IMG/VR virus record: IMGVR_UViG_3300007511_000019
Source: a virus
Reading direction: 5' to 3' (one strand)
DNA length: 64,000 bases
A program made the translations under genes and the position numbers. How positions within the stretch are numbered: position 1 is the first letter of the stretch; each line of letters starts with the position of its first letter. Shown here piece after piece: positions 23,962 through 40,670 of the stretch. Below the pieces are notes generated by a model. It saw nothing but the letters and a program-made list of their open reading frames with translations, ran no database searches and was not told where the DNA came from.

Positions 23962-24234
23962 ATGACCACTGCAACGATGCTCACCGTTATCGGCCAACGA
24001 CTACTCATTCGCCGCGATACTGCCCCAACAAAGAGCGAAGGCGGTATTCATCTACCCGAGCAGGTACGAGAGAAGCTGAGTGAGGGTAACGTAATCACCG
24101 CCGGTGCCAAGTGCGAACACGAATTTACCGAGGGCCAACGTGTGGTCTTCAACCCTTACTCGGGCGATACCGTCAAAATCGACGGAGAAGATTTGTTGGT
24201 CGTCCGCGAAGACGATATCCTACTGGCGTTCTAA
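23962..24234 (+). CDS. groES: co-chaperonin GroES (Cpn10) homolog
   Basis: The 90-aa protein matches GroES at IGQRLLIRRDTAPTKSEGGIHLPE, GNVITAGAK and GQRVVFNPYSGDTVKIDGEDLLVVREDDILLAF. An RBS (AAGGA) lies upstream. Confidence 0.75.
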   Translation: MTTATMLTVIGQRLLIRRDTAPTKSEGGIHLPEQVREKLSEGNVITAGAKCEHEFTEGQRVVFNPYSGDTVKIDGEDLLVVREDDILLAF

Positions 24235-24244
24235 GGAACCGAAC

Positions 24245-24637
24245 ATGTTGACGGAACGACAATCCTTTAAGGTGGCCTTTCTAAAGCGTTGTGCCGACGC
24301 AGGCCTGACGATCGAGGAAACGCACGGATGCGTCAAGGAAGCCCTGGACAGCATGAAACAGGCTGATGGCCTGTTCGGGGCTATCAATAGCTTGACGGCC
24401 AAGCCACTCAACACTGCATGGGACGTAGTTGGCGACACTGCGAAGACTCTCGGCAATATCGGTATTACTGGACTCGTGCTTGGCCCGCCTGCAGCAGGTG
24501 CAGGTGCAGGCTATCTAGCTTCTCGCCTTGGCGACGTTGACGACGACGACATCGAGGCTGCAAAGAAGAAAGAGTTGATCGAGGCCTACCGTATGCATGC
24601 GGAGAAGCTTCGTCGTAAACAGCAGGCTACGCTGTAA
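24245..24637 (+). CDS. hypothetical protein with a Gly-rich hydrophobic segment
   Basis: The start is at the internal ATG with RBS AAGGAACC. Confidence 0.4.
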   Translation: MLTERQSFKVAFLKRCADAGLTIEETHGCVKEALDSMKQADGLFGAINSLTAKPLNTAWDVVGDTAKTLGNIGITGLVLGPPAAGAGAGYLASRLGDVDDDDIEAAKKKELIEAYRMHAEKLRRKQQATL

Positions 24638-24642
24638 GACGC

Positions 24643-25116
24643 ATGAGCTTCTTAAAATTTCACGACCAGACCAATGGGAATGGTCGTGGGAACATCTACT
24701 ACCACCGTGCTGCTCAAGATGGTGCCCCGTTTCGTGGGCCAGCCGCCCCGCTTATGCGGGACGCGGAGTTCGAAGATCTTACGGAACAAGTATACGATTG
24801 CTACTCCGGAACTTTCGACACCTCCGACGCAACAATGACCCAGCACGGGCGAAGATACCACGAAATTCTAGAAGGAACCGCTATTAACTGGTTCCGGCTA
24901 TTATGCGAGCGACAGTACACTTGGACCGAAAAGACTGACGGACCGCCCAAAATGTACGTGTACATAGAGTGGGCGGAACCTTACAATGAATTGGCTCCGG
25001 AACGAGCGTCTGCTTCCGTCGGTACAAGAACACAAGTGGTCGAGAAGGAACGAAAGTATGACCAACCTAGCATTGGTTCTAAAAGCGTCCCGCCAATCCT
25101 CCGAGAAATCGGCTAA
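24643..25116 (+). CDS. hypothetical protein
   Basis: ORF of 157 aa. Confidence 0.4.
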   Translation: MSFLKFHDQTNGNGRGNIYYHRAAQDGAPFRGPAAPLMRDAEFEDLTEQVYDCYSGTFDTSDATMTQHGRRYHEILEGTAINWFRLLCERQYTWTEKTDGPPKMYVYIEWAEPYNELAPERASASVGTRTQVVEKERKYDQPSIGSKSVPPILREIG

Positions 25117-25894
25117 CCAACCTACCTTCTACGACGCTGTACAACACGTCACTGCTAAGGCTTTGCAACGTAAAGCTCTAGCTGGAGCAGGTACAGCGGC
25201 ACTAGCTGGTCTCGGTACTGGTGCAGGTCTACGAGGTATCCTCGGCCTGTTGGAAATGAGCAGGCAAGGTGCCCAGCCGCCCCAGGCTCAAGCCCCTACC
25301 GGTCAGATCGAGGTCCCGGTGGACGACGAGAAGATCGCTGCCTTGGCGGATTTCCTCAAAGGCGACTATGCCAAATCGACTTCTGGTGTGCCTTGGGCCA
25401 TTCCTGCCGCTGTTGGTGCCGGTGCTGCCGGAGCGTACGGTGGTTGGAAAGGTATCGACGCACTGCTCGAGCAAAGACGAAAAGGCGAACTAGAGGCTGA
25501 GCTTGAAAAAGCCAAGATGGACTACGAAGCTGCCTTGTCTGGCGACACCAAGTTAGCGGAAGACCTGGACGAACTCTACGACACAGTAGAGAAACAAGCT
25601 GTCTCCGCGTCAGACGCAGCAGGAACGGCTACAGGACTCTACGGAGTCTACGGCGGTACTTCAGCTTTGTTGGCCGCCATTATGGCTTACCAATACGGTA
25701 AGAAGCGACAACGCCGGTCCTTGCTTGAAGCGGCACAAGAGAAACGCCGCCGACAACGCTTTGCACGACAACCTGTGCCGATCCAAGTACGGCCAGTGCC
25801 TAAGCAGCATGAGCAGGACCCGCTGCAGGCAAGTAAGTCCCCGTTCCAGGCCGCACCTAGCTTGGACGAACAAGAAGATCAACTGGATAAGTAA
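25058..25894 (+). CDS. hypothetical Ala/Gly-rich membrane-associated protein with a charged C-terminus (start uncertain; the tracker start is 24986)
   Basis: An RBS (AAGGAA) precedes the ATG at 25058. It is TAATG-coupled to the RNAP gene at 25894. Confidence 0.35.
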   Translation: MTNLALVLKASRQSSEKSANQPTFYDAVQHVTAKALQRKALAGAGTAALAGLGTGAGLRGILGLLEMSRQGAQPPQAQAPTGQIEVPVDDEKIAALADFLKGDYAKSTSGVPWAIPAAVGAGAAGAYGGWKGIDALLEQRRKGELEAELEKAKMDYEAALSGDTKLAEDLDELYDTVEKQAVSASDAAGTATGLYGVYGGTSALLAAIMAYQYGKKRQRRSLLEAAQEKRRRQRFARQPVPIQVRPVPKQHEQDPLQASKSPFQAAPSLDEQEDQLDK

Positions 25895-28800
25895 TGCCAA
25901 ACATTCTGTCACCGCCCTCCGGCGTGCTAAGCGGGACCAAACCTGCTCTGCCGCAACCGGTACGTCCTCTGCAAAAAGAGGAACCGGAAAAGCGAGAGTT
26001 CGGTGACGCTTTGGCCACGCGGCGGCTTATCTACAACAACGTGCTGGCGTCGACTCAAACACTTGAGCCGATCTCTAACCAACGCCACACGCTACAACTG
26101 CGTGATGTTAAATACGCTGACGATCCCAAGTTCTCGTACAAGCAGCAAAAGGAAGCCATCCTCGGCGGTAAGAGTCTCAACCGTCGACTGCAAGGCACCT
26201 GGGAGCTGTCGGATAACGAAACTGGCGAAGTGCTTGACAGCAGGCCCGGCGTAGTTGCTCGTGTACCGCACCTGACGGATCGCGGTACGTTTATCCACAA
26301 CGGTAACGAGTACACCCTGTCCAACCAGATGCGGTTGCGGCCAGGCGTGTTTACCCGTGTCAAAGACAATGGAGAAATTGAAGCCCACGCAAACCTATTG
26401 CCGGGTAAAGGCGTCAGCCACCGGTACTTCCTAGACCCCGAGAAGGGTATTTTCCACATGCGGATGGGGCAGGCGAAAATACCGCTGATGCCTCTTCTCA
26501 AGTCGCTCGGAGCAACAGACAAACAATTGCAGGAAGCATGGGGCAACGAACTGTGGCAAGCTAACGCTCAAAAGGACAACCCAGGAACCCTATCGAAGCT
26601 GTACCAAAAACTGGTACGTAAGATTGACCCTGATGCCGACGAGCCAGCTAAACGCCTAGCCGTTGCCGAAGTCATGGAGAAAATGGAACTGGACCCCGAG
26701 GTTACACAACGAACCTTAGGTAACAGTTTCAACAGGATGGGGTTGGATGCGATTCTAGCCACCACCAATAAATTGCTCGCAGTATCCCGTGGAGAACAGG
26801 AGGTCGATGACCGTGATCATCTCGCTTATCAAAATGTCCTGGGCCCAGAAGATTTGTTCGCGGAACGTATCGCAAAGGATTATGGCGGACTCCGCCGACA
26901 ACTTTTGCATAGATCTAGCTTTAAGGGAGACTTGTCAGCCGCACAGTCCGGTATGCTAAGTCGCCAGTTAGAAGCCGCGTTACTCCATTCTGGATTAGGG
27001 CAAAGCCTTGAAGAAATCAACCCAGCAGACATCTTCGACAAACAATCAAGAATCTCACGTCTCGGTGAGGGCGGCATCCCGTCCATCGACGCCGTGCCAG
27101 ACGAAGCTAGGGCGGTTCAGCCGAGCCACTTGGCTTTCATGGACCCAGTACGCACGCCGGAATCATTTAAGGTCGGTGTGGATGTGCATATTGCCAACAC
27201 GGCTCGTAAAGGATCTGATGGCCGAATTTACTCACCGTTCGTTGATCCTCGTAGCGGAAAAGAGGTGTGGAAGTCGCCCCAGGACCTTGCAGATCTCACA
27301 GTCGCTTTTCCCGGCGAAATGCGTAGGGAAACTAAGCGGGTTGGTGCCATGCAAGGCGGCAAACTCAAGTTTGTCCCAAAACAGTCTGTGGACCTGGTTG
27401 TGCCCACTTTCGAAAACGCTTTCTCGCCGCTAGGTAACATGGTTCCCATGAAGTCAGCGGTCAAGGCCCAGCGTATGGCTATGGCTAGCCGTATGCTCAC
27501 ACAGGCCTTGCCGCTCGAGAACGCAGAGAGTCCGCTTGTACAGACCGGCATCTCTGGCGAAGAGGATACAAGTTACGAGCAGCGATATGGTCGTAAGATG
27601 GGTGCCGTCTTCGCCGACAAGCCAGGACGAGTAGTTTCAATAAGCGACCAAGGGATTAAGGTCAAGTACGACGACGGAACTACAGAAGAGAAGCAGCTCT
27701 ATAACAACTTCCCGTACAACCGCAAAAGCGTAACCGGTGACACTCGTATTGTGATCCGACGCAAGAATGGCGAACTGTGGACTGGATCAATCGATAAGTA
27801 CCACTGGGAAGATAGCGACCAAGTGCAGTCGGTGGACCCAGACTCCAAGCAGTCTGCCTGGAAACGCGTCACAGGTTACATTACGCACTGCAACGACAAA
27901 CAGCTGTTGCGGATAACTACTAAATCCGGGAGATCGGTCGTGGTCACGGAAGACCACAGCCTTATTACGCTGGACAAACACGGAGAACTGGTACCGGTCT
28001 ACCCTAAAGACTGCGAGATCGGGCTAACCCGCCTGCCTGTAGCCATGTTGCAGGGTCATCGATCTCGGCGACATGGCCAGGAGATTAGCAAAGACCCGAG
28101 CGGCATTCTGTGGGGGCTGTACGTAGCCGAGGGGCACTGTCCGCCTACCCAACCAGGGCTAGTTAACATTGCAGTAGAGCCAGACGACCGTGCAGAACAG
28201 GTGTTGGAAGTGGCTCGTCAGTGCGGTTATGAGGCGTACCGCAATGGCGGTAACGTATGCTTTACTGACCACGCCTTCGCCGCCAAGGCGACTGAGCACT
28301 TTGGCCACCTGTCGCACAACAAGCGAATTCCCGCCTGGGTGCTTGGTACTCCCGTCTGGTTTCGGGAAAGTTTTGTTCAAGGCTATATGGCTGGCGACGG
28401 GTGCTTGTGGGAGGACTCAAACGGGTCGCTACAGCTGCAGGCCGTTACGGTTTCTAGAGAGCTTCGCGACGGATTTGTCGAGTTGCTGTTAAGCCTAGGC
28501 ATTATGACGACGCTTTTCGATGCACCTAGAAAGCACCTCAACGACAACTGGCGTGACGCGTACGGTTGCCGCATAATCAGTAGCCACGTAGGGCGACTTC
28601 GTAAGTGGTTCTACTACGCAGACCGTGAGCGACAACTCCACGAGCTGCTAAAGCCTACGTATCGAGCCGCAAGCTTTGACCTGGTCCCGGTAGCCGCCGA
28701 GGCCCGTAAACTTCTGTACAAGGGTTATATCGGGACGGTTCCTAGCTATGTCTATAAGACCGCCAACCAGGGAGCAGTTGCTAAGCACCGGTTGAAAGAA

Positions 28801-31551
28801 AATACAGGCGTGTTCGGCGACTGGGCACGCTCTGATGTACTGTGGGACCCTATCGAAGAAATTATCCCTGTTGCTTACGAGGAACGAGTATATGACCTTT
28901 GCGTCCAGCACTCCGAGGCATTTTGCGTCAACGGCGGACTGCTCGTGCACAACACCTACATTCACAATACTCCGACAGTCAAGCCAGGTGACACCTTTGG
29001 TGTGGGGCAGGCCTTGGCTAAATCCAACTTTACCGATGCTGGTGGCACTACCGCTCTCGGTAAGAACGCTCGCGTTGCGTACATCCCATTCCGAGGGCAG
29101 AACTTCGAGGACGCTCTTGTGATCTCCGAGTCTTTCGCCAAGCGAATGAGTTCGGAGCACATGTATCAACACGGCGTGGACTTCGCAGACGACAAGAAAA
29201 CCAAACGACGCGACTATGTCTCACTCTTCCCATCCAAGTATGACAAACAAACTTTAGAGAGCATCGACGAAGACGGCGTCATCAAGCAGGGCACTATCGT
29301 CAGTCACGGCGACCCCCTTATTCTGTCGGCACGGCAGAAGGACGTTGCTCAGCATAAAGTCCATCGTCGCAAGGCTCCTGGCTTTACCGACCAATCCGAG
29401 ATCTGGAAGCACCATGCCCCTGGCGTGGTTACTGATGTATTCAAGGGCAAGAAGGGCACCACGGTCCTAGTCAAATCGCTCTCAGCTATGCAAAAGGGCG
29501 ACAAGCTATCAGGCCGCTACGGTGACAAAGGTGTTATCTCGGCGATCGTGCCGGATAACGAGATGCCCCACTCAAAGGACGGACAGGCTTTCGAAGTTTT
29601 GCTTAACCCTCTTGGTATTATCTCCCGTACAAACCCGGCCCAAATGGTTGAGGCCGCACTGGGAAAGATTGCTGCCAAGACAGGGAAACCTTACAAGGTG
29701 GTTGATTTTGAAGACATACAAGATTTGACGGACTTTGCGATCCAGGAACTCAAGAAGAACCAAATGGAGGACCTGGAGGACATAACCGACCCGTCGAACG
29801 AGAGAAAGATTCCCGGCGTCTTCACCGGCAACCGCTTCTTCATGAAACTCCACCATACGGCGGAGGGAAAGGGGCAGGGTCGTGGTACAGGAGGTTATAC
29901 GATGGAAGGTACTCCCGCGAAAGGCGGTGAGACCGGTTCCAAGCGAATTTCACTTCTCGATAACAACGCACTCCTCTCGCACGGTGCCACTGAGGTTCTT
30001 CGAGACGCAGGAGCAATTCGAGGACAACGTAATGAGGAGTTCTGGCTCCCATTCATGCGTGGTGTTACTCCCCCAAAGCCCAAGGTACCCATTGTCTATC
30101 AAAAGTTCGTGAACGAGCTTAAGGCATCAGGTATTAACGTGGTGGAGGACGGAACACAAACACACATTATGGCCCTCACCGACAAAGACGTCGGTGAGCT
30201 GGCTGGACAGAGATACCTCAAGAGCGGCGACACGGTTCAATTTGAAAAAGGATTGAAACCGATCACCGGCGGTCTGTTCGACCCCGCACTAACCGGCGGA
30301 CACAACGGCAATCGCTGGTCGGCAATCAAACTCGCAGAACCTATGCCGAACCCGGTAATGGAAGAACCCATTCGCCGCGTCTTGGGACTTACACAAAAGC
30401 GATTCGAGGCCGTCCTATCCGGGCAGGAAGAGTTGCAAGGACACCGTGGTCCTGCAGCCTTTACCAAGGCCCTAGGTAAGATGGACCTGGATAAAGAGAT
30501 TGCTTACGCACAAGCGGAATTCAAATCCGGACGTAAGGCCTCTCGAGATATGGCCATACGTAAACTGGGTTACCTCAAGTCCGCCAAGAAACTAGGCATA
30601 CACCCTAAAGACTGGATGCTGACCAAGGCTCCTGTATTGCCCCCGATGTTTCGTCCGGTGTCGGTGATGTCCGACAACCGCCTTCCTTTGGTATCGGATG
30701 CTAATTTCCTTTACAAGGAATTACTGGAAGCTAACGACAACCTAACAGAGATGTCAAAAGAGGTGGACGATGTCGCCGACGAACGTCTTGCGGTCTACAA
30801 CGCTTTCAAAGCAGTCACAGGACTTGGAGATCCAATACACCCAAAACTGCAGGAGAAACGCGTCAAGGGGATTCTTAAGCACGTATTTGGTTCTAGCCCT
30901 AAGCTGGGTGCTGTGCAGCGTAGGCTTGTATCCAGTACTGTGGATCTTGTTGGCCGTGCAGTTATTACTCCTAACCCTGACCTGGACATGGACCATGTTG
31001 GGCTTCCAGAGAATAGAGCCTGGGACATCTACAAGAACTTCATCGTACGAAGACTCAAGCGGCGGGGTATGCCGCTGGTCGAAGCGGCCAAGCAGGTCGA
31101 GAACCGTTCAGAAGTAGCTAAACAAGAGTTGGTCAAAGAGATGGGCGAACGGCCCGTGGTGATCAACCGAGCCCCGGTTTTGCACCGTTTCGGCATCATG
31201 GCTTTCTACCCCAGACTTACCAAGAGCGACACTCTGGAGGTCTCCCCGTTGATCGTGAAAGGCTTCGGAGCTGACTTCGATGGGGATGCTATGCAATACC
31301 ACGTACCGGTCTCCGACGAGGCCAAAGACGAGGCCGTGGACCGTATGTTGCCAAGTCGCAACCTCTTAAGCCCGGCTGACTTCAAGTCGCCTATCCACGT
31401 ACCGAGTCAAGAATACACCGGTGGATTGTACGCTGCGTCGTCCACCAAATCTAAGCGGCGGGTGCGTACCTTCCGCAATACCAAGGATATGCTCGCAGCC
31501 TATCGGCGTGGTGAGCTAGACATCAACGATGAAGTGGAGGTGATGGAGTAG
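25894..31551 (+). CDS. rpoB: phage multisubunit RNA polymerase: beta subunit fused to the N-terminal (rpoC1/gamma-like) part of beta', interrupted by an intein
   Basis: Beta blocks include LTDRGTFIHNGNEY...RPGVFT, GKNARVAYIPFRGQNFEDALVISE, GDKLSGRYGDKGVIS...LLNPLGIISRTNP and GNRFFMKLHHTAEGKGQGRGTGGYT. Beta' blocks follow in the same ORF: PITGGLFDP, VLPPMFRPV, NRAPVLHRFGIMAFYP and GADFDGDAMQYHVP. The ORF ends about 90 aa after the DFDGD motif. Confidence 0.85.
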   Translation: MPNILSPPSGVLSGTKPALPQPVRPLQKEEPEKREFGDALATRRLIYNNVLASTQTLEPISNQRHTLQLRDVKYADDPKFSYKQQKEAILGGKSLNRRLQGTWELSDNETGEVLDSRPGVVARVPHLTDRGTFIHNGNEYTLSNQMRLRPGVFTRVKDNGEIEAHANLLPGKGVSHRYFLDPEKGIFHMRMGQAKIPLMPLLKSLGATDKQLQEAWGNELWQANAQKDNPGTLSKLYQKLVRKIDPDADEPAKRLAVAEVMEKMELDPEVTQRTLGNSFNRMGLDAILATTNKLLAVSRGEQEVDDRDHLAYQNVLGPEDLFAERIAKDYGGLRRQLLHRSSFKGDLSAAQSGMLSRQLEAALLHSGLGQSLEEINPADIFDKQSRISRLGEGGIPSIDAVPDEARAVQPSHLAFMDPVRTPESFKVGVDVHIANTARKGSDGRIYSPFVDPRSGKEVWKSPQDLADLTVAFPGEMRRETKRVGAMQGGKLKFVPKQSVDLVVPTFENAFSPLGNMVPMKSAVKAQRMAMASRMLTQALPLENAESPLVQTGISGEEDTSYEQRYGRKMGAVFADKPGRVVSISDQGIKVKYDDGTTEEKQLYNNFPYNRKSVTGDTRIVIRRKNGELWTGSIDKYHWEDSDQVQSVDPDSKQSAWKRVTGYITHCNDKQLLRITTKSGRSVVVTEDHSLITLDKHGELVPVYPKDCEIGLTRLPVAMLQGHRSRRHGQEISKDPSGILWGLYVAEGHCPPTQPGLVNIAVEPDDRAEQVLEVARQCGYEAYRNGGNVCFTDHAFAAKATEHFGHLSHNKRIPAWVLGTPVWFRESFVQGYMAGDGCLWEDSNGSLQLQAVTVSRELRDGFVELLLSLGIMTTLFDAPRKHLNDNWRDAYGCRIISSHVGRLRKWFYYADRERQLHELLKPTYRAASFDLVPVAAEARKLLYKGYIGTVPSYVYKTANQGAVAKHRLKENTGVFGDWARSDVLWDPIEEIIPVAYEERVYDLCVQHSEAFCVNGGLLVHNTYIHNTPTVKPGDTFGVGQALAKSNFTDAGGTTALGKNARVAYIPFRGQNFEDALVISESFAKRMSSEHMYQHGVDFADDKKTKRRDYVSLFPSKYDKQTLESIDEDGVIKQGTIVSHGDPLILSARQKDVAQHKVHRRKAPGFTDQSEIWKHHAPGVVTDVFKGKKGTTVLVKSLSAMQKGDKLSGRYGDKGVISAIVPDNEMPHSKDGQAFEVLLNPLGIISRTNPAQMVEAALGKIAAKTGKPYKVVDFEDIQDLTDFAIQELKKNQMEDLEDITDPSNERKIPGVFTGNRFFMKLHHTAEGKGQGRGTGGYTMEGTPAKGGETGSKRISLLDNNALLSHGATEVLRDAGAIRGQRNEEFWLPFMRGVTPPKPKVPIVYQKFVNELKASGINVVEDGTQTHIMALTDKDVGELAGQRYLKSGDTVQFEKGLKPITGGLFDPALTGGHNGNRWSAIKLAEPMPNPVMEEPIRRVLGLTQKRFEAVLSGQEELQGHRGPAAFTKALGKMDLDKEIAYAQAEFKSGRKASRDMAIRKLGYLKSAKKLGIHPKDWMLTKAPVLPPMFRPVSVMSDNRLPLVSDANFLYKELLEANDNLTEMSKEVDDVADERLAVYNAFKAVTGLGDPIHPKLQEKRVKGILKHVFGSSPKLGAVQRRLVSSTVDLVGRAVITPNPDLDMDHVGLPENRAWDIYKNFIVRRLKRRGMPLVEAAKQVENRSEVAKQELVKEMGERPVVINRAPVLHRFGIMAFYPRLTKSDTLEVSPLIVKGFGADFDGDAMQYHVPVSDEAKDEAVDRMLPSRNLLSPADFKSPIHVPSQEYTGGLYAASSTKSKRRVRTFRNTKDMLAAYRRGELDINDEVEVME
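27727..28953 (+). mobile_element. intein (409 aa) with a LAGLIDADG homing-endonuclease domain in RNAP beta
   Basis: The flanks (...YNRK and TYIHNTPTV) match the beta region ...YTRSNQN / TCINQMPCV. Hint block A is SVTGDTRIV (Ser1). The C-terminus is ...LLVHN with Thr at +1. LAGLIDADG-like motifs are ILWGLYVAEGH and FVQGYMAGDGCL. Confidence 0.7.
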
Positions 31552-31612
31552 CCTAGTCTGTGCTAAACTGCTGGTTACTACACCCTTTACGTCCAATGGA
31601 AGGCTATTCCTC

Positions 31613-32296
31613 ATGACCATGTTTTCTGGAAAACTCCAAGAACTCGTGAAGATCGCCCGAGCCCAAAACGGTAAACAGGCCTTTGTCGACCCCGCAATGG
31701 CTGCGGGTGGTGGAATGCCCCCAGGTGGCGATCCCGCCGCGATGGGTATGGATCCTGCCGCAATGGGCGGTGCTCCCCCTGCAGATCCTGCTGCGATGGG
31801 TGGAGCCCCTCCGGCTGATCCTGCTGCTGGTGGCGGAGGTATTTCTCGACCAGAAGTCGAGGCAATGATTCAACAAGCCGTAATGGCTGGTGGCGGGGGC
31901 GGTGCTGGAGGTCCTGGCGGAGAAGCCGGACTCAAACCTAAAATCGATGTCAACGTCGAGATCATGCAGATGAAGAACCTGCTGGCCAAGGTTGTTGACA
32001 CTCTTGGTATTCCGGTACCTGCTGAAGAAATGACAGCTACGACTGACAAACTCACCGCGATGGCCCAGGGTCAAGACCCAATGGCTGGCGGCGGAGGTGC
32101 TCCCGGCGGAGACCCAGCTGCGGCTGGTGGTGCAGGCGGAAGTGCGATTGCTCCGATTGGCCCGATGGCTGGGGCGTCTCCCGAGCTTGCTAAGTCCGGC
32201 TGCGATATGGGCACTGCGGCAGACCCGATTGATATGGTAGGTCTGCGAGACAAGGCGTCAGCTTTGGCTGCTGTGCTGCGGCGGAAAGATTCGTAA
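31613..32296 (+). CDS. Gly/Pro/Ala-rich protein with DPAAMGG repeats
   Basis: GDPAAMGMDPAAMGGAPPADPAAMGGAPPADPAAGGGG is repeated. The same motif type occurs in the scaffold-like protein at 46182. Confidence 0.4.
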   Translation: MTMFSGKLQELVKIARAQNGKQAFVDPAMAAGGGMPPGGDPAAMGMDPAAMGGAPPADPAAMGGAPPADPAAGGGGISRPEVEAMIQQAVMAGGGGGAGGPGGEAGLKPKIDVNVEIMQMKNLLAKVVDTLGIPVPAEEMTATTDKLTAMAQGQDPMAGGGGAPGGDPAAAGGAGGSAIAPIGPMAGASPELAKSGCDMGTAADPIDMVGLRDKASALAAVLRRKDS

Positions 32297-32571
32297 TGAA
32301 AGTCGTCAGTACTGATGGCCAGCTTAGATCGATTACTCAGGAAAACATTTCCCAAGTAATCGTTTACGATCTGTTCGATAACCCTATAATGGTTGTGGTG
32401 GAAGTTCAGCCGGGTGTTCACACTTGCGTGGCTGCCAACGACAAGGACTTCAATCGCATCATGGCCGGACTGGGTATTGACAAGGTTGTGATAGATACTC
32501 CGCTGATCCCTGACAGGGAGATTCCTGCGGAGGCCAAACTTATTTCTGGCCCCTTTGGGAGCGTACAATGA
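32296..32571 (+). CDS. hypothetical protein
   Basis: The 91-aa ORF is TAATG-coupled upstream and ATGA-coupled downstream. Confidence 0.35.
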   Translation: MKVVSTDGQLRSITQENISQVIVYDLFDNPIMVVVEVQPGVHTCVAANDKDFNRIMAGLGIDKVVIDTPLIPDREIPAEAKLISGPFGSVQ

Positions 32572-32792
32572 CACGACGCGGAGCAAAAGACGAACGAGCC
32601 AAACGCATTGCCGCCTCCGAGCGGCATTTTGGCATGACGCCTGCCGACCACGACGCCGCTTTGTTACAAGTAGCCGAGGAGCTGGCGGCGTTCGACAGAA
32701 AATCTGATAAGCTAGATGCGTTCCTACATATGCTCGAAGACAAAGTGGACGGAATAAGCGATGGCTCTGCAGGGCGGATTCGGGGTTCCTGA
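32568..32792 (+). CDS. hypothetical protein
   Basis: The ORF is 74 aa, with an ATGA overlap. Confidence 0.3.
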   Translation: MTRRGAKDERAKRIAASERHFGMTPADHDAALLQVAEELAAFDRKSDKLDAFLHMLEDKVDGISDGSAGRIRGS

Positions 32793-33045
32793 GCAATTGC
32801 GGGCTCGAATGGCCCGACCAGCTACCCCCACACTCAAAGTTCTGTCTGTCTGGGTACAGCACGGAGTAGAACAGCAGTTACTGCCCATAGCATCTGGCGA
32901 TGACGACGCCCAGCTGCGTGGACTGCTTGCAAATTGGGAGCAGCAACTGGACTACGGGGAAATGGTCGCTTCAAACATGCGGTATCTAGGGCGGCACCGG
33001 ATTGTAACAGTTCCTTTCATCGGACGGCAAAATGGCAAAGCGTAA
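32761..33045 (+). CDS. hypothetical protein
   Basis: The 94-aa ORF overlaps both neighbouring genes. Confidence 0.25.
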   Translation: MALQGGFGVPEQLRARMARPATPTLKVLSVWVQHGVEQQLLPIASGDDDAQLRGLLANWEQQLDYGEMVASNMRYLGRHRIVTVPFIGRQNGKA

Positions 33046-36000
33046 GGCTACTGCTGGCCAGATCCTCATCAACGAAGTGTTGCCTGAAGACATGCGGGAC
33101 TACAACCGCACGCTCGACAAGAAGGGTCTGTCCAAACTGCTTACCGAGGTAGCCCAGAAGCACCCGGACGACTATCGAGATATCTCCCACCGACTGGGCA
33201 AGATCGGACGCGAAGCCGCCTTTACATCAGGCGGCAATTCTTTTGGCCTAGCCCACATGAAGCGTGCTTTGGTCGCCCGCAAAATGCAGTCTGGCCTGAA
33301 AACCCGTATCAACGCATTGCTGGACAACGACAGCCTTGACGATGACGCAAGAGACGCAGCCATTATCAAACTGGTTGGTAAGGCCATGCCGCAGCTGCAG
33401 GACGCCATTCTTGAAGAGAGCGACGCCGAAGGTAACCCGCTCGCCCAACAACTCAAAGGTGCCGGTCGCGGTAACAAGATGAACCTCTCTTCGTTACGAG
33501 GTAGCGACGGGCTGTATCAAGATCACCGTGACAACATCATCCCGATTCCTGTACTCAAGAGTTACTCAGAAGGGCTCTCGCCGCTAGAGTATTGGGGCGG
33601 GACTTACGGTGCCCGGCAAGGTGTTATGGCGGTTAAGTTCGCTACACAGGACGCTGGCTTTCTATGCCTTGCGGAAGGCACGGAAGTGCGGATGGCTGAC
33701 TGGAGCACCAAGCCTATCGAAGAGATCCAAGTAGGTGACACGGTACTGGGAGCTAACAAGTACGGAACGACCTTTCCCGTCAAAGTGACCGCCACTTTTG
33801 ACAACGGTGTGCGGCAGCTAACAAAGTTCCGCTTCCGGTACGGCAAGGCCCGCAACCGTTTTATTGAGGTGACAGCCACCGACAAACACAAAGCCCTGGC
33901 CGAGCATCTTCGTCGCCGACGCAAACGCCCTGATCCTAGGTTACATATTGAGATCAGCCAAGACGTTATGCCAATGGGTACGTTCGAACGACGGACAGTT
34001 TCGCGGCACGCTCTAGTCCCACCTCAAGGCTACTCCTGCCCGCAAACCGGTCCGAGAGACGAGTACTGCTGGCTGCTAGGCCTCCTGACTGCCGAAGGCG
34101 GTTTAACTACGAATCACGTAGGACTGTCTTGTGGAGATCCGGAGCTGCTAAAAGAGGCTCGACGGTTGACAAAGCCAATGGGTTTCGAGATACGCCAAAA
34201 GAAAAATGCCCAGTACGAATACAGCTTTTATGACACCCAGCCCTTGCCCGCAAAAGGTAAGCCTGGCGGAGGCATTGCCACCGGTTCTTTCCGAAACCGG
34301 CTCAAGGCCAAGCTGGCTGAACACGGGCTGCTAGGTAAACTGGCCCAGGACAAGGAATTGCCCGAACAAATTTGGGCGTGGCCCAACTCACATGTCTGCG
34401 GTTTTCTTCGTTGGCTCTTCGCCGGTGACGGGGGTGTCAGTCCGTCGAACAACGCTACGCTGCCTGTAGTCACGTTGGGCATGACAGCGGAGCCGGTTGT
34501 GCGGGGCGTCGAACGCTTGTTGGCCGATCGTTTTGGCATCTACGGTCAGATTAGTATGGACAAGGCGGAGAACTGCCCTAAAGCCAACCATGACTGCCAT
34601 GTTCTTGCCATTTCCGATCCCCAGTCGGTGGAACGCTTCGCACAACACATAGGTTTTGTTGCTGGTAGTAAGCAGGCCCGTCTAATGACGCTGCTGGCCG
34701 AGGCCGACCCTTGCGAGAGGCACAGCCGCTTTCTCTTCCATTACCTCGACTCCGAGGACGTTGGCGAAGGTCCTACTTACGATATCGAGGTCGACAACGA
34801 GGACCACCTATTTGTACTGGCCAACGGGGCAATTGTCTCCAATTCCAAACAACTCAATCAAATCGCACACCGCTCAGTCGTGATCGACGAAGACAGCGAT
34901 GGCGAGCCCGACACCCTCATTGGTCTGCCTGTCGATACTGACGACATGGACAGCGAGGGTTCGTTGTTGGCGGCTCCTGCGGGCAAGTATAAACGAAACA
35001 CAGTGCTCACTCCTAAGATCATCCGCGAATTGAAGCAAGCGGGAATCAAACGGCTCTTGGTGCGAAGCCCAGCAATCGGTGGTACGCCAGACGGCGGTGT
35101 GTACGGCAGGGACGTCGGTATTAGAGAATTCGGTCGACTTCCTACACGAGGCGAAAATGTTGGACTCACAGCTGCTCAAGCCCTATCTGAACCGCTGTCT
35201 CAGGCTCAACTCTCGGCGAAGCATACAGGCGGGGTGGCTGGCGAATCCCAAGCAGTCTCTGGATTTGATTACATCAACCAACTCGTACAAGTTCCCAAAA
35301 CCTTCAAAGGCGGAGCAGCCCATTCAACGCTTGACGGTATCGTACAAGCTGTCGAGCCCGCTCCTGCCGGTGGTACCTATGTCTCCATCAACGGAGAACG
35401 ACATTACATCGCAGGAGGGTTCGAGCCAAAGGTTAAGAAAGGCGATCACGTCGAAGCTGGAGACGTTATTTCTGACGGCACTCCGAACCCTTCGTTGATT
35501 ACCAAACACAAAGGCGTGGGCGAAGGCCGACGTTACTACATCAAGTCGTTTGCTGACGCCATGAGTTCTGCTGGCATCAAATCCCACCGCCGCAACGTCG
35601 AACTACTAGCGAGAGGGCTTATCAACCACGTTCGCCTTACAGACGAGATCGGGGACTTTGCACCTGACGACGTGGTGCCCTACTCCATGATGGCCGCTCG
35701 GTACATTCCCCGAGAAGGGTTCAAAACAATGGATCCCAATCGTGCAACAGGTAAGTATCTTGAGAGGCCCTACCTGCACTATTCGATCGGCACCAAGATC
35801 CGCCCATCGATGATGAAAGACTTCAAAGACTTTGGCGTGAAAAGCGTTGATGTACATGACGACGAACCGCCTTTTGAACCAGAAATGATCCGAGGCATGG
35901 CTAACCTGCAACACGACCCAGACTGGATGACCCGTATGTTCGGTTCTGGTCTGAAAGGTAGCCTGCTTCGCGGTGTACATCGAGGCGGCACTTCGTCGGA

Positions 36001-36094
36001 GACCGGAACCAGCTTTGTGGCCGGTCGGGCGAAGGCCGTTGACTTTGGTCGTACAGGTATTATCCAAACTCCGAAGGAGCCTCCCAAACCATGA
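33032..36094 (+). CDS. rpoC: RNA polymerase beta' C-terminal (rpoC2-like) subunit, interrupted by an intein
   Basis: [12 protein letters not shown]...KKGLSKLL matches beta' at AILNEILP...KKAISKML. Further matches are [25 protein letters not shown] to [41 protein letters not shown] to TRRLVDVAQDLVVTEDD, and [23 protein letters not shown] to [23 protein letters not shown]. Confidence 0.85.
   Translation: [1020 protein letters not shown]
33665..34843 (+). mobile_element. intein (393 aa) with a LAGLIDADG endonuclease domain in RNAP beta'
   Basis: It begins [10 protein letters not shown] (Cys1, Hint block A) directly after the GFL of the GYL|TRRL-equivalent site, and ends ...NGAIVSN with Ser at +1. 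LAGLIDADG-like motifs are [14 protein letters not shown] and [12 protein letters not shown]. There is no penultimate His. Confidence 0.65.
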
Positions 36095-36204
36095 TCGATC
36101 CTACCGCCGTATTTGTTGAAATCGCTTTCGGTCTCGGACTGCTCGGTAGCATAGTTGCCCTTGGGGCGTACGCAATCTACCGTATCCTCAAAATCAAACG
36201 ATGA
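36091..36204 (+). CDS. unlisted 37-aa single-TM peptide, ATGA-coupled to the beta' stop and to the next gene
   Basis: MIDPTAVFVEIAFGLGLLGSIVALGAYAIYRILKIKR has a hydrophobic core plus a basic tail. Its ATG at 36091 overlaps the TGA at 36092-36094, and its own TGA at 36202-36204 overlaps the ATG at 36201. Confidence 0.4.
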   Translation: MIDPTAVFVEIAFGLGLLGSIVALGAYAIYRILKIKR

Positions 36205-36383
36205 GCAAGACTACCTACAAACAGTGCAGGCTCGAGAAAAAGATGCCTGGAGCGTTACAACGAAAAGTTACTCACCTCCCTGGTAAGTTTGCCAAGGTAG
36301 GTAAGGTGTTAAAACTCAAAGACGATCAAGGTGACTGGGACGCCGGTTGGAAGGTTGTGTCGGTAGACACATTGCCAAAATGA
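36201..36383 (+). CDS. small basic protein (60 aa)
   Basis: It is ATGA-coupled on both sides. Confidence 0.35.
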   Translation: MSKTTYKQCRLEKKMPGALQRKVTHLPGKFAKVGKVLKLKDDQGDWDAGWKVVSVDTLPK

Positions 36384-37024
36384 ACGCACAAGAGCTAGGG
36401 AAAGCGACAAGAGAGAAGCAGGCCGTTGTAGCCCACGGCCAGCAAGGCTCTCCGTACATGCAGGGTGGCCCGATGGGTCAGCAGAGTTTTGGCGGCTTCG
36501 GCCAACAAAGCCAGGCTCAGGCACCTGTGCAAACTCCTGGAATGTCGCAGTACGTACCACAACGTTTCCAGCAACAGTTCAAACAACAGCCTGGCCGCAC
36601 CTGGGGCCAGTGGTGGAACCATGTTCGTAGTCCGCAGGGCCGAAACGAATATCACCAGTACCAAACCCCCGATAACCTCGACGCCGGTATGAACTACGGC
36701 TGGGCAGCAATGTCAGCTAATCCTGCCGGTATGGTATTCGGCCCACTGGGCGAGGCTGCCAGCTGGGGTTTGTACGGTATGCCGAGCAAAGCACAGATCA
36801 ACGATGTCAACCGTCCTGGCAGCTATATGAATGCTTACCACATCGACCCCGATATGAGTGCTGGTGAGAAATTCAGGCGTGTCGGCGGGGCAGTTGCCCC
36901 TTGGCGATGGGCTTCCGGAATGAAAAACGTCTATCACGAGGCTCAGAAGGGCCAGGCGGCCCACCAGGCAAATAAGCCTGAGGCCATTCGTAACATGCCA
37001 TGGATTCATAAGGACTGGTTCTAA
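36380..37024 (+). CDS. Gln/Gly-rich hypothetical protein (start at the ATGA overlap; the tracker start is 36347)
   Basis: Low-complexity N-terminus (QQGSPYMQGGPMGQQSFGGFGQQSQ) with aromatic-rich C-terminus. Confidence 0.4.
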   Translation: MNAQELGKATREKQAVVAHGQQGSPYMQGGPMGQQSFGGFGQQSQAQAPVQTPGMSQYVPQRFQQQFKQQPGRTWGQWWNHVRSPQGRNEYHQYQTPDNLDAGMNYGWAAMSANPAGMVFGPLGEAASWGLYGMPSKAQINDVNRPGSYMNAYHIDPDMSAGEKFRRVGGAVAPWRWASGMKNVYHEAQKGQAAHQANKPEAIRNMPWIHKDWF

Positions 37025-37077
37025 ACCCTCAAAGGGTTTACAATCAAAGTCGAGTCCACCATTGGAGATACACACGG

Positions 37078-38229
37078 ATGTCAACCAGTTTTAACATGCT
37101 CAAGCTGGCAGCACAGGCCCGAGTAGCCCGCGAGAAGCAAGCGGAAGGTGAAGGCCCTGGCCTTAACGAGGGTATTGGCAACATTCTCGGTACGCTCGGC
37201 GGTGGAGCTGCTGGTGGGTTTGCTGGTGCCGATGCTGGCGACTATCTGGGGCACTTGTTGGGCCAAAAGAACAAAGACCTTGTTGCAGGCAACGCTGTAA
37301 TGGATCACCTAGGCCGGGCCGGAAAAGGCCTTAGCGGTTTGGCTGATCGATTTGGTAGTGCCACCAAGGCCGTTGGTAAGGGTGCCTTGGGCAGTGGTTT
37401 GGCGTCCGCACCAGGATTCGCGGGCAAGCTGGCCAAGTACTTGTCGTTGCTTCGCCGAGGCGGTGCAGTAGGCGGCGGACTCGCTGGTATCCTCGGAGGT
37501 GCTGCACTAGGCGGTTCCGCGTTGAGCGGCGTCGGTAGCTACTTCGACAAAAACAGTTCAGAGAAACGAGCCAACATCGGTATCCTCAAAGGGCTCGGTG
37601 GTTTGGCCGATGACGCTATCCGCTACGGCGGCAAGGCTCTCGGCTCTGGCTTCATGACCGGTATGAAACAACCTGGGCTGATTCCGAAGGGACTTACCCT
37701 GGGTGCTTACGGTATTGGTGGTACGGCGGCTAACGAAGCCCTTGCTTCTGCTGGCCTACCGCATATCGGCGGTTCAGAACACTGGTCACCACACCGACAA
37801 GGTTTGCGAAACCAGGAGGCTAACGCTCGCGGACCACTTGCCTCACTAACACAAATGGCCACTCGGCCAATTCAGAGCACCATGCACGCGATGGGCTGGA
37901 CACCACCAGCTGGCGGTGCTGGCGACTTTATCAACAACATTGATAAAGGTGACGCCACCGTTCAGTCGCAGGGCTGGGATCCCCAGACCGGGGAGGCACG
38001 CTACCGATTTGGTGGTGGCGGCAAGGGTCAAATGGACCCGGCCTTCCTTAGCCGCATGGAGCAGATCAAACGTGACGTGGCCCAATTAAAGGCCATGGGC
38101 ATCAGTATTGACGGCTTGGGCGGCGACGCCCCGGGTCGAGGTGGCAGCGGATCCGGCGGCGGCTCCAACAGCCATATATTCCGTTTTGAAGACCAACCAC
38201 CGGGCCTTTCTCTGGGTTCTACGTACTAA
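37078..38229 (+). CDS. Gly-rich putative internal virion/ejection protein
   Basis: The protein is 383 aa, dominated by GxGxxG-type glycine-zipper segments. Confidence 0.4.
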   Translation: MSTSFNMLKLAAQARVAREKQAEGEGPGLNEGIGNILGTLGGGAAGGFAGADAGDYLGHLLGQKNKDLVAGNAVMDHLGRAGKGLSGLADRFGSATKAVGKGALGSGLASAPGFAGKLAKYLSLLRRGGAVGGGLAGILGGAALGGSALSGVGSYFDKNSSEKRANIGILKGLGGLADDAIRYGGKALGSGFMTGMKQPGLIPKGLTLGAYGIGGTAANEALASAGLPHIGGSEHWSPHRQGLRNQEANARGPLASLTQMATRPIQSTMHAMGWTPPAGGAGDFINNIDKGDATVQSQGWDPQTGEARYRFGGGGKGQMDPAFLSRMEQIKRDVAQLKAMGISIDGLGGDAPGRGGSGSGGGSNSHIFRFEDQPPGLSLGSTY

Positions 38230-38234
38230 AGTCC

Positions 38235-40670
38235 ATGGACGGCAGAATGAACAACATCTCCGCACTTCGTAAGAAGCTCGCAAGCTACAAAATGGATCGT
38301 ATGAAATTCGCGGCCATCGGTGGCGATCAGGAGCAGGGCTTCGAACAGTCCTTCGCTAGCCTCGCCTACGCCTACATACAGGACAAGGCCCCCGGTCTTT
38401 TGGACTACATGGTGGGCTTCCAACTTGTCGACCGCAACGATGACAACACCAAAGCGGTTGGCATTTTTGGTTTTAAGGTAGGCCCGCAGTGGGTATACGC
38501 ACCAGTCTTCTTCATCAACGGCGACTTGAAAGGGCACGAGCTGCTCTACATCAAGAACAAAGACACCTTTGTCCCGATGAAGGAAAACTGGATCAACTAC
38601 CTGCTCTCCAACCGCCCGCATATTCTCGGCGAGCCGACTCCAGATAACGAGAACCAACTCGGTATTCTGCAGCCCGATCTTACGGACATGTCCAATCCTC
38701 CCGAGGACGGCAAGTTCGCTTCGGATCGTACACGCATTCCGAAACTGCCTAAGCGGGCACTCGACGAGGTTATGCCTAAGCTAGCCTCCTGGGCGACTAA
38801 GAATCCGTACACCCTGACTAAATTCGCTGGCCTGAACGATCGTTCAGGTCTTCAGGATTTTCTCAAGTCGGACGTTCGCCTGGTCAAGCTGGCCATGGAC
38901 ATCGCCAAGTCGTACCCGTCTGTCAAGTCGGCAATGCGGCAATTTTATGGGCCTACGCTTTTCCGGGACGTGCTCTTGGGGATGCGGAAAGAGGCCTCCC
39001 ACTCGTCTATCCTGGACGCGGCCAGCCAACCAGCACAATCGGTAGTCAGTGGTGGTATCCTCGCCAAGGAAGCCGCCGCAGACAAGGCTCCCAAGGTCAA
39101 GGTGATCACAGATCAAGTGACCACCGAGAACATGCCGGAGCTGACAGAGACCGAGCGAGGCAAACTATTAACCGACAGCTACTTGATCAAAGATCATCGA
39201 GACGGGAAAGAAGTCTCGCGAGTCTACAACACTCAAGTCGAGATGTCGTTGGTCAACCCAGACTGCACAGATACCTACGAAGTCCTAGTCAAGCCAAACG
39301 GCTTCGAGAAGTGCTTGGTGATTCATCACCCGCACGGACCAAGAGGTCGTAAGCCTCACTGCGTCGTAATTCGTCTTGACGGCAAGAAAAACTACTGCAA
39401 CGTCCACAAGACCAAATTGTTCGTGAAAGAACAAGCACGCGGTAAGTCTGACGTAGAGGAGTGGGCAGACTGGTACAAGAATAACGGCAGTGACAGGACC
39501 GATCTGCGAAAAGGCACTGTCGCGGTTATCGTATCAGACAACGGCCAGGGCACCTGTGCTTTCGAAGTCGAAGAGGACTTGGGCGACGATTGCTACCAGG
39601 TCTACTGGAAGGATTACGGCGGAGACACCCGACCTGATTATCTTCCCGACGTGGATTACGACCGGGGTATTGACACGTGCAGCAACGATTGTGACATCAT
39701 ATATTTCAATCAACGCGAGGGCTCTGGTTTTAAGTCGGTGAACGGCAAACTGTATATCCCGCCGGAAGCCAAGGTTGTAAAGATCCACGACCCAGACAAG
39801 TGCAAGAAATGCAGTAAAGAAGAATACGACTGCACCTGCGAATACTTCCGCCGCGACCACAAACGTAAGAGTGATCCTGTCAAGCCAGGCAACCTAGTTG
39901 ACTTGCAGATGGAGATCATGCAGAAGTCGGCGTCAGGCGAACTGCCGCAGTTGAAGATCATCGTAGACAACCAAGAGGTTTGCGTTAACCGTGCACGCAT
40001 GTCCAAGAAGGCTGCCCTCTTCCACCTAGTGGTTGAGCATGGTTTGCGTGAGAAGGTTGCTAAGCGAATGATTCGCGAAGCGGAGCTAGACCGCACAGGC
40101 GGTAAACGCTACTACGTCAAGTACGCCCAGCCTTATCCGGCCATGGAAGGTCCTGGTGCTCCAGGTATGCCTGGCCCACAATACGGCATGGATCCAGCGT
40201 ACGGTGGCGTTCCAATGCAGAACCCGCAAACCGACTACATGGGTGTACCGGAACTCAGTGCGGGCAACACTGACCCGTCAGTGTACGATCCAATGCAAAA
40301 TATAGACCCCATGGCCATGCAAGTGGCTCAACAGGCAGGACAAACGGGACAGAAAGAAGTCTTCGACACGGCTATGCTCTCGAGCATGCTCAAGGCTGTA
40401 CGGGAAGACTCTATCGTAGATCGTTACCTTGGCGACCTGATGAAAGCATTGGATCGTCTAGGCAGAATCCTGTTTATGTTCTACTGGCACAACGAAGAGT
40501 TCACGGGCCGTTACGGTAAGCAGGACTTACCGGAACTCGAAGATACTCTACGTAACGCTTTTGAGGTCATGGGTGACCTAGTGCTTTGGCTGAAAGAGAA
40601 AACTATCAGTCCTCTCGGAACAGCCGTTGAGGCGGGCGTTCCGGGTATCGACGAAGCTGCGAGGAACTAA
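38235..40670 (+). CDS. large virion protein, possibly the portal
   Basis: The protein is 811 aa and sits at the head of the morphogenesis block upstream of the scaffold and capsid genes. The assignment rests on size and position only. Confidence 0.3.
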   Translation: MDGRMNNISALRKKLASYKMDRMKFAAIGGDQEQGFEQSFASLAYAYIQDKAPGLLDYMVGFQLVDRNDDNTKAVGIFGFKVGPQWVYAPVFFINGDLKGHELLYIKNKDTFVPMKENWINYLLSNRPHILGEPTPDNENQLGILQPDLTDMSNPPEDGKFASDRTRIPKLPKRALDEVMPKLASWATKNPYTLTKFAGLNDRSGLQDFLKSDVRLVKLAMDIAKSYPSVKSAMRQFYGPTLFRDVLLGMRKEASHSSILDAASQPAQSVVSGGILAKEAAADKAPKVKVITDQVTTENMPELTETERGKLLTDSYLIKDHRDGKEVSRVYNTQVEMSLVNPDCTDTYEVLVKPNGFEKCLVIHHPHGPRGRKPHCVVIRLDGKKNYCNVHKTKLFVKEQARGKSDVEEWADWYKNNGSDRTDLRKGTVAVIVSDNGQGTCAFEVEEDLGDDCYQVYWKDYGGDTRPDYLPDVDYDRGIDTCSNDCDIIYFNQREGSGFKSVNGKLYIPPEAKVVKIHDPDKCKKCSKEEYDCTCEYFRRDHKRKSDPVKPGNLVDLQMEIMQKSASGELPQLKIIVDNQEVCVNRARMSKKAALFHLVVEHGLREKVAKRMIREAELDRTGGKRYYVKYAQPYPAMEGPGAPGMPGPQYGMDPAYGGVPMQNPQTDYMGVPELSAGNTDPSVYDPMQNIDPMAMQVAQQAGQTGQKEVFDTAMLSSMLKAVREDSIVDRYLGDLMKALDRLGRILFMFYWHNEEFTGRYGKQDLPELEDTLRNAFEVMGDLVLWLKEKTISPLGTAVEAGVPGIDEAARN

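Follow-up and report, generated by a model that had tools for sequence, protein, structure and literature searches.

A bacterial-type RNA polymerase re-partitioned into a beta::beta'N fusion and a beta'C subunit, each interrupted by an intein, in phage DNA

The stretch of viral DNA analysed here, which we refer to as the window, comprises 64,000 nucleotides of IMG/VR record IMGVR_UViG_3300007511_000019, and all coordinates given are positions within it. We consider it likely, and the best explanation overall, that the window encodes a multisubunit RNA polymerase (RNAP) of the bacterial type which serves a large tailed phage as its transcription enzyme and is re-partitioned into two intein-broken polypeptides (Table 1). 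The two-polypeptide architecture itself is secure. Subunit 1 is a head-to-tail fusion of a complete beta subunit with the first third of beta', while subunit 2 is the last two-thirds of beta' with the rim helices, the bridge helix, the trigger loop, the jaw and region H. Since each subunit gene is broken in frame by an intein, both precursors must self-splice before an active enzyme can form, a requirement that we regard as secure.

Two genes encode a re-partitioned RNA polymerase

The open reading frame (ORF) of the fusion subunit remains open without a stop codon from a complete beta into beta'. Its Pfam matches begin with Rpb2_2, Rpb2_3 and Rpb2_6 (beta; E = 1.5e-49 for Rpb2_6) and continue with Rpb1_1 and Rpb1_2 (N-terminal part of beta'); in addition, Intein_splicing and LAGLIDADG_3 were detected. 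In phmmer comparisons with PDB chains, the spliced fusion protein matched beta chains over residues 76-1015 (E = 4e-69), and the spliced polymerase matched bacterial beta' chains with E values of 1e-49 and 3e-35, which is far beyond chance.

We used Salmonella RpoB and RpoC, carrying E. coli numbering, as the ruler for the subunits. The GQNFED catalytic motif of the beta part is found at 29095-29115. At the fusion junction, a short link (TQTH) joins the last beta residue to approximately residue 19 of beta', the first ~18 beta' residues being missing. The zinc-binding domain of beta' is cut out by a ~33-residue deletion (30268-30342), while the clamp-helix region and the sequence VLPPMFRP are retained. 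The GADFDGDAM catalytic motif occupies amino acids 1792-1800 (nucleotides 31267-31293), and the fusion protein stops 87 amino acids past the last Asp of this motif.

The remainder of beta' is encoded by a separate gene. Its product matches the Pfam family Rpb1_5, a match that is broken at residues 212-604, together with LAGLIDADG_3 (E = 1.4e-14) and Hom_end_hint. The sequence KATAGQIL, the equivalent of the TTVGR element (E. coli 572), is present at its N-terminus (33044-33067); since the fusion protein ends at about beta' residue 552 and beta'C begins at about residue 567, this element opens beta'C. Further downstream, the bridge-helix block aligns to E. coli 778-805 and the AAQALSEP block to ~923, and a region H-like C-terminus was recognised by eye in the translation. 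The spliced proteins of 1476 and 627 amino acids are colinear with intein-free homologues (1444-1526 and ~620-660 amino acids, respectively), and neither splice junction shows a gap.

Table 1. Features of the RNAP region and its surroundings (positions in the window).
Feature	Position	Strand	Description	Basis or remarks
Gly/Ala-rich protein	25058..25894	+	278 amino acids, Cys-free	stop overlaps RNAP start codon; weakly conserved in relative L008
Precursor gene, beta::beta'N fusion subunit	25894..31551	+	1885 amino acids, 1476 spliced	ORF list, translation, Pfam, phmmer
N-extein 1, beta N-terminal part	25894..27726	+	end ...FPYNRK (~E. coli beta N762)	boundary from sequence; mapped on Salmonella/E. 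coli beta
Intein 1	27727..28953	+	409 amino acids (residues 612-1020); Ser1 ... His-Asn, then Thr+1	Pfam Intein_splicing 1.8e-12, LAGLIDADG_3 5.5e-07
C-extein 1, beta part	28954..30153	+	TYIHNTP... to ...SGINVVEDG	alignment; end equals E. coli beta C-terminus ...LGINIELEDE
Beta/beta' fusion junction	30154..30165	+	4-residue link TQTH	global alignment to Salmonella beta C-terminus and beta' N-terminus
Beta' N-terminal part	30166..31548	+	~E. coli beta' 19-552	alignment, motif coordinates
Gly/Pro/Ala-rich protein	31613..32296	+	227 amino acids, low complexity	positional orthologue in five close relatives; not in Arash/D69
91-amino-acid protein	32296..32571	+	74-79-amino-acid homologues	directly upstream of beta'C in close relatives
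Two overlapping small ORFs	32568..33045	+	74 and 94 amino acids	coding status uncertain
Precursor gene, beta'C subunit	33032..36094	+	1020 amino acids, 627 spliced; ~E. coli beta' 567 to end	ORF list, Pfam, phmmer, alignment
Intein 2	33665..34843	+	393 amino acids (residues 212-604); Cys1 ... Ser-Asn, then Ser+1	Pfam LAGLIDADG_3, Hom_end_hint
AAQALSEP, start of trigger-loop block	35171..35194	+	E. coli AAQSIGEP	translation, motif coordinates, PDB alignment range
Two Q/G-rich low-complexity proteins	36380..38229 (36380-37024, 37078-38229)	+	214 and 383 amino acids, Cys-free	after beta'C
Homologue of Arash virion protein gp218	38235..40670	+	811 amino acids	after beta'C in close relatives; few genes further down in Arash, D69
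Major capsid protein	48877-49878			homologue of Arash gp226; without match in Pfam or PHROG

Each subunit gene carries an intein at a conserved site

Intein 1 contains a block B with the sequence TEDH (region of nucleotides 27937-27963) and the LAGLIDADG motifs ILWGLYVAEGH (28105-28137) and FVQGYMAGDGC (28372-28404). In intein 2, block B reads TDKH, and the two LAGLIDADG motifs contain GLLTAEG (34070-34102) and WLFAGDG (34403-34435). Both elements have the hallmarks of class 1 inteins, namely an N-terminal Cys or Ser, a TxxH block B, a C-terminal Asn and Ser or Thr at the +1 position, and acidic residues are present in both LAGLIDADG motifs of each of them. Both inserts are precisely in frame relative to intein-free alleles. 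The GC content and the GC content at third codon positions of both inteins are those of the exteins. When the two inteins were compared with each other, no relationship was detectable.

The first intein is inserted between the positions of E. coli beta N762 and T763, 47 residues ahead of the GxNFED motif of beta (GYNFED in E. coli). The second interrupts beta' between the positions of E. coli L796 and T797, a site that we take to lie inside the bridge helix (E. coli ~769-805). Their LAGLIDADG homing endonucleases would account for the spread of such inteins among related phages.

The preliminary description of this region, made from the letters alone, had proposed a 1885-amino-acid ORF running from beta into beta'N through GADFDGDAM, a separate beta'C gene downstream with four small ORFs (31613-33045) in between, a split about 90 amino acids after DFDGD, and a Hint-plus-LAGLIDADG intein at a conserved site of each subunit. 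Our data bear out each of these statements: ORF, Pfam matches and motif position agree, the distance to the split was measured as 87 amino acids, Hint/LAGLIDADG profiles matched both inserts, and the intein ends that we derived independently coincide exactly with those given there (27727-28953 and 33665-34843). The same is true for its view that this polymerase is unusually conserved, as seen from the phmmer matches to bacterial chains, and for the absence of alpha, omega and sigma genes nearby, for none of which a Pfam match was found among the ~56 ORFs of the window.

Fusion and split are shared by a large and intein-rich family

A word-indexed search with the fusion protein returned 1225 matches, and our statements on domains and lengths derive from the best 120 of them. 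All 120 have the domains of beta and of beta'N on a single chain; those free of inteins measure 1444-1526 amino acids, while longer ones, of up to 3038 amino acids, contain one to five inserts. In order to avoid bias from inteins or from ordinary RpoB and RpoC proteins, we also searched 1.84 billion cluster representatives (clusters at 50% identity) with a junction-only query of 201 residues astride the beta/beta' boundary (29998-30600). This yielded 1053, 963 and 424 clusters at E <= 1e-3, 1e-10 and 1e-30, respectively, and among the best 150 of the 1053 clusters the alignment ran across the junction in every case. In nearly all full-length homologues, the N-terminus of beta'C lies within three amino acids of that of the window protein, and the same subunit termini are found in gp206 and gp216 of the Salmonella phage Arash at ~30% identity. 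Judged from these junction-spanning clusters and coinciding termini, fusion and split are fixed features of the family and not peculiar to this window. The architecture had initially been taken as singular; instead, it is the norm in more than 1000 protein clusters and in cultured phages in GenBank, and the window is thus one more member of a very large and mostly metagenomic family.

Across the family we counted about 20 intein sites, up to five per gene, and they are placed in catalytic motifs. The inserts of the homologues have canonical C...N|S/T ends and are found at DPxRTPE|S, GDKL|SGRYGDKG, NPLGIISR|TNP and FG|SSPKLG, directly after NADFDGD, at three positions in the bridge helix and in the trigger loop. 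Among 95 full-length proteins from 140 newly retrieved representatives of the junction search, 83 contain at least one large insert, a count that may be affected by a bias of cluster representatives towards long members.

In the Vibrio phage D181 (L003, OZ196140), the fusion gene is interrupted by a group I intron at 9605-9885 (RF00028, 100.7 bits), which is followed by a homing-endonuclease ORF; the database record lists the exons of this gene as separate hypothetical proteins. Five homologues (P0247, P0249, P0256, P0267, P0318) share a start that precedes the junction query by ~63 residues (spliced position ~897), which suggests that some family members have a recurrent interruption of the gene there, be it an intron or a split. 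Four contigs of 116-226 kb that carry this phage RNAP (L015, L018, L021, L022) have been deposited as bacterial metagenome-assembled genomes (Dependentiae, Sediminibacterium, Planctomycetia and "uncultured bacterium"); these appear to be complete phage genomes that were mis-binned. A scan of genome contigs for hints at the host gave only phage contigs of this kind, labelled as metagenome-assembled genomes. A nucleotide search with 24 kb of the window against 50,697 phage records gave no match.

A virion-delivered early polymerase is the most likely role

Homology with phage Arash suggests a polymerase that would be packaged in the capsid, enter the host cell with the DNA and transcribe early genes. 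Such an enzyme would work without alpha and omega, the beta::beta'N fusion substituting for the assembly platform that the alpha dimer provides, and a phage sigma-like factor encoded beyond the window may serve it. We regard this virion-delivered early polymerase as the most likely role, with chances that are roughly even.

In the mass spectrometric analysis of Arash virions, gp206 gave 3516 spectra, the highest number of all proteins and above that of the major capsid protein, and gp216 gave 1210; the sigma-like protein gp10 (467 spectra), the helicase gp217 (1148) and gp218 (1149) were detected as well (PMC10585845). When we normalised these counts by protein length, each of the five proteins yielded about two spectra per residue. 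Equal spectra per residue are only suggestive of co-packaging; the gene for gp10 is located ~50 kb away in Arash.

Gene order points in the same direction. Downstream of the RNAP genes of the window lies a virion module (major capsid protein, tail and further virion proteins) that is syntenic with the structural module of Arash. The order of fusion gene, short variable gap, beta'C gene and gp218-like gene is kept in six IMG/VR relatives and in Arash and the Vibrio phage D69, and the RNAP genes head the virion module in every relative that we examined.

A further trait of the polymerase is the loss of cysteine and zinc. The spliced core contains no Cys in 2103 residues; with a background of 1.1% in the window, the probability of this by chance is ~1e-10. 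The two inteins contain nine and eight Cys residues. Homologues are likewise Cys-free in 66 of 83 intein-free fusions and in 49 of 49 beta'C proteins. We scored the two structural zinc sites of beta' (C70/72/85/88 and C814/888/895/898, E. coli numbering), and both are missing, the first through the ~33-residue deletion described above, with no Cys in either spliced subunit. A core free of Cys and zinc fits an enzyme that is kept outside the cell and reaches the host through the phage tail.

Several points weigh against our interpretation of the system. Other structural proteins of the window phage contain Cys, so that Cys loss is not a general signature of virion proteins. The evidence for packaging in the virion comes from a single proteomic study of a relative that is ~30% identical, whose authors themselves allow for carry-over of abundant proteins from the infected cell (PMC10585845). 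That the enzyme is active without alpha and omega is deduced from the lack of both in the 64 kb and from the precedent of phiKZ and AR9. A BLAST search with Arash gp10 gave no match in the window, in which no sigma homologue was found. Intein 2 has a Ser in place of the usual penultimate His, and its splicing competence is assumed.

The same architecture could also belong to a non-virion polymerase for middle or late genes, with the detection in Arash particles reflecting the carry-over just mentioned. We consider this possible but on balance doubtful. It would fit with the finding of ribonucleotide reductase and ligases, unlikely virion components, in the same Arash data set (PMC10585845), and with structural proteins of the window phage that are not generally depleted in Cys. 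On the other hand, the spectral count of gp206 above that of the major capsid protein, the position of the RNAP genes at the head of the virion module, and the core that is free of both Cys and zinc speak for the virion-delivered enzyme.

We propose only tentatively, as an idea that may well need revision, that among phage multisubunit RNAPs this family forms a lineage of its own, the third one, which is independent and very abundant. It would consist of a minimal core of two chains, one with both catalytic barrels and the other with the bridge helix and the trigger loop, that needs neither alpha nor omega. The shedding of all Cys residues and of both zinc sites would then be due to packaging in the capsid and threading into the host, perhaps along with a sigma-like factor. 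The adjacent low-complexity proteins, or the corresponding fusions to beta'C, would act as partners in packaging and ejection, and with ~20 intein sites at the active centre the family may be among the most intein-dense ones.

Should these views hold, the enzyme would be the simplest among those natural multisubunit RNAPs that can still be aligned well with the bacterial enzymes, with two chains, no assembly platform and no zinc, which would recommend it for structural and mechanistic studies and for retracing the evolutionary partitioning of two-barrel polymerases. It would then also be a second independent virion-delivered multisubunit RNAP beside that of phiKZ-like phages, with tractable cultured members on Salmonella and Vibrio. 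Inteins at the bridge helix, the trigger loop, the DFDGD loop and the beta lysine block constitute a natural set of sites for conditional splicing, and the intein load can serve as a dense marker for the exchange of genes between uncultured phages. The value of the family lies in this combination of a minimal Cys-free two-chain RNAP with an exceptional intein load, represented by more than 1000 clusters and a few cultured phages.

The genes between the subunit genes are unlikely to encode core subunits

The space between the two subunit genes is occupied by four ORFs on the plus strand, of 227, 91, 74 and 94 amino acids. That they encode the missing small subunits, as analogues of alpha, omega or sigma, is an unlikely explanation for their presence. 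In its favour, the 227- and 91-amino-acid proteins hold their place between the RNAP genes in five relatives. Yet these two are conserved only in close relatives and are absent from Arash and D69, which makes a role of these two as core subunits unlikely. Moreover, neither protein has a Pfam or PHROG match, the 227-amino-acid protein is of low complexity, and for the other two ORFs no homologue was found in any of the relatives examined. In Arash, the corresponding gap contains nine unrelated genes, some of them on the opposite strand, and in D69 it contains two tiny ORFs. Searches of Pfam and PHROG with all four gap ORFs and their neighbours gave nothing informative. The 94-amino-acid ORF is missing from the JGI gene calls on an identical contig.

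Comparison with known polymerases and alternative explanations

The closest known systems are those of Arash (gp206 and gp216; OQ632216; PMC10585845) and of the Vibrio phages D69, D181 and D148, which share the layout of a beta::beta'N protein (1525-1527 amino acids) and a beta'C protein (606-609 amino acids). They also share the subunit termini, the place at the head of the structural module and the downstream synteny of gp218, gp222 and the major capsid protein gp226. Arash and D69 differ from the window in their low identity (~30%), the lack of inteins, four Cys residues kept in beta'C and other genes between the subunits. The window polymerase is a member of this Arash-like family as judged from its fusion junction, its split termini and its place ahead of the gp218/gp222/major capsid protein module. 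In the Arash paper, gp206 and gp216 are labelled plainly as beta and beta', and a fusion or split is not described (PMC10585845).

We first assumed membership in the mReC group, with which the window shares an origin from tailed phages in metagenomes and a beta/beta' pair that is well conserved, bacterial-like and alignable with cellular RNAP (PMC7481178). However, the mReC contigs encode separate beta (986-1422 amino acids) and beta' (899-1391 amino acids) subunits, with two sets of them in some cases, together with a capsid protein of the T4 type (PF07068/VOG11186), and fusion, split and inteins are not mentioned in that study (Weinheimer and Aylward, 2020; PMC7481178). The window, with its fused and split subunits of 1476 and 627 amino acids and a major capsid protein lacking Pfam and PHROG matches, has neither separate subunits nor a T4-type capsid. 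Hence we rejected this assignment, the two being set apart by layout and capsid. Rhizobium phages of the Kleczkowskaviridae were also considered as members and rejected, their beta' being full-length and separate.

The virion and non-virion RNAPs (vRNAP and nvRNAP) of the phiKZ/AR9 type are phage multisubunit enzymes as well, without alpha and omega, with beta' split after the double-psi beta-barrel and with one enzyme packaged in the virion (PMC7598289). They differ in that their beta is present in two to three pieces and never fused to beta', in that they are highly divergent and in that they have no sigma, while the beta of the window is intact, fused and close to that of bacterial RNAP. 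The cyanobacterial and plastid enzymes resemble the window in the division of beta' into an N-terminal piece that comprises clamp and barrel (RpoC1 or gamma) and a C-terminal one that carries the bridge helix and the trigger loop (RpoC2); their beta is separate, and they carry a large SI3 insertion.

The preliminary description had placed the split at the cyanobacterial rpoC1/rpoC2 site and contrasted it with the fragmentation of the phiKZ type, and neither statement can be maintained. According to the PDB chains, the Synechocystis gamma subunit (626 amino acids) and plastid RpoC1 end just past the TTxGR-helix element, while residue 1 of RpoC2 corresponds to about E. coli 583-588, which places the cyanobacterial/plastid junction at ~583-590. 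The phage split (~552/567) lies 20-35 residues upstream of it, within the exposed surface-loop stretch between the barrel and region E that harbours both sites: it is close to the cyanobacterial site, not identical. The beta' split of phiKZ-type jumbo phages has itself been reported to coincide with the cyanobacterial site (PMC7598289), so that the contrast between the two fails; the real difference from phiKZ is a beta that is unsplit and fused.

Descent of the phage split from an rpoC1/rpoC2 ancestor of the cyanobacterial or plastid type, an origin that has been proposed for the phiKZ-type split in a review on jumbo phages (PMC7598289), is in our opinion improbable despite the common surface region. 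In the window, the C-terminal piece contains the TTxGR element and the helix that follows it, while in Synechocystis gamma and plastid RpoC1 both are part of the N-terminal piece. Furthermore, beta is fused here and never so in cyanobacteria, the trigger loop has no SI3 insertion, and the best PDB matches are not specifically cyanobacterial.

In the rpoBC fusions of Helicobacter and Wolbachia, the beta C-terminus is joined directly to the N-terminus of beta', and a full-length beta' follows; in the window, beta' is cut again after the catalytic barrel. In placing both barrels on one polypeptide, the window enzyme is reminiscent of YonO and of the polymerases of crAss-like phages, which are single-chain and two-barrel, but its sequence is plainly of the bacterial type. 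Inteins of the Hint-plus-LAGLIDADG type are known from RPA2, RPB2 and RPC2 of eukaryotes and of nucleocytoplasmic large DNA viruses, where they occupy several non-allelic positions close to the active site (Goodwin et al., 2006; PMC1635734). They are alike in type and in their conserved active-site placement to those of the window, while their hosts are eukaryotic or nucleocytoplasmic large DNA viruses. Introns are known in the RNAP genes of AR9-like phages. In the literature that we searched, whose coverage was incomplete, we found no account of the fusion/split family or of inteins in bacterial-type beta or beta' of phages; the family has apparently not yet been described as such.

That the inserts are decayed, non-splicing inteins in pseudogenes, or in genes for a non-functional polymerase, is highly improbable. 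The Ser that precedes the terminal Asn of intein 2 would fit with decay. However, both frames are open over more than 1000 codons, and none of the nucleophiles, of the TxxH blocks or of the two acidic LAGLIDADG motifs is missing. An allelic intein is present at the intein 1 site in 24 homologues, and an insert at the intein 2 site in ~18; the former are 36-63% identical to intein 1 and nearly all retain the S...HN termini, one of them being a mini-intein of 182 amino acids. The conservation of the same termini at such identities argues for purifying selection on the inteins, and the exteins are 55-76% identical to intein-free homologues. An artefact, namely a stop codon or frameshift lost through an assembly error or a chimeric rpoB-rpoC contig, is a general possibility for metagenomic contigs, but it is refuted here by a protein identical to the fusion subunit (P0001) on an independent JGI contig and by the more than 1000 clusters (JGI, ENA, NCBI, Logan) retrieved with the junction-only query, and the same fusion is present in finished genomes of cultured phages.

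Genomic surroundings of the polymerase genes

Every gene of the window lies on one strand. Judged from the contigs of relatives, the complete genome probably measures 140-235 kb, of which the window represents perhaps a third. A scan of positions 24000-38500 for sigma-70 promoters and intrinsic terminators gave counts that were not above those of shuffled sequences, and no tRNAs were found in the window.

The 811-amino-acid gp218 homologue lacks any Pfam domain, and its homologues number 971 (43-60% identity). Its AlphaFold2 model (pLDDT 67.5, pTM 0.38) gave no significant fold match in a Foldseek search of PDB (best E = 0.095).

In many relatives, a G/Q/P-rich extension of 300-1100 amino acids, comparable to the two Q/G-rich proteins that follow beta'C in the window, is joined to the C-terminus of beta'C. 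These extensions have no homology to ORFs of the window and no Pfam domain, except for two domains of unknown function in one protein. The low-complexity proteins that flank the RNAP genes (25058-25894, 31613-32296, 36380-37024 and 37078-38229) share, ~20 residues from the N-terminus, a motif of the type '..(A/L)xx(E)K(Q/S)A..', and the same motif (LLEKQAQ, LLEKRAE, LLEKSAE) opens the beta'C extensions of P0172, P0175, P0185, P0123 and others. Based on this recurrence, it may be a shared signal for protease processing or capsid targeting.

The region 485-14953 (+) is a run of sugar-nucleotide and glycosylation genes, encoding an epimerase/dehydratase, a DegT aminotransferase, methyltransferases, a Clp_N-cytidylyltransferase fusion, glycosyltransferases, an RmlD-like reductase and a nucleoside deoxyribosyltransferase. 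An SPFH/Band-7 protein is encoded at 10479-11960, and a homologue of ribosomal protein S12/S23 (133 amino acids; PF00164, E = 2.9e-23) at 12052-12453 (+). A protein of 1065 amino acids with a LigD 3'-phosphoesterase domain and ATP-dependent ligase/OB domains is encoded at 18730-21927 (+), of which the JGI annotation of the identical contig called only fragments, and a Cpn10/GroES homologue is present nearby (23962-24234, +).

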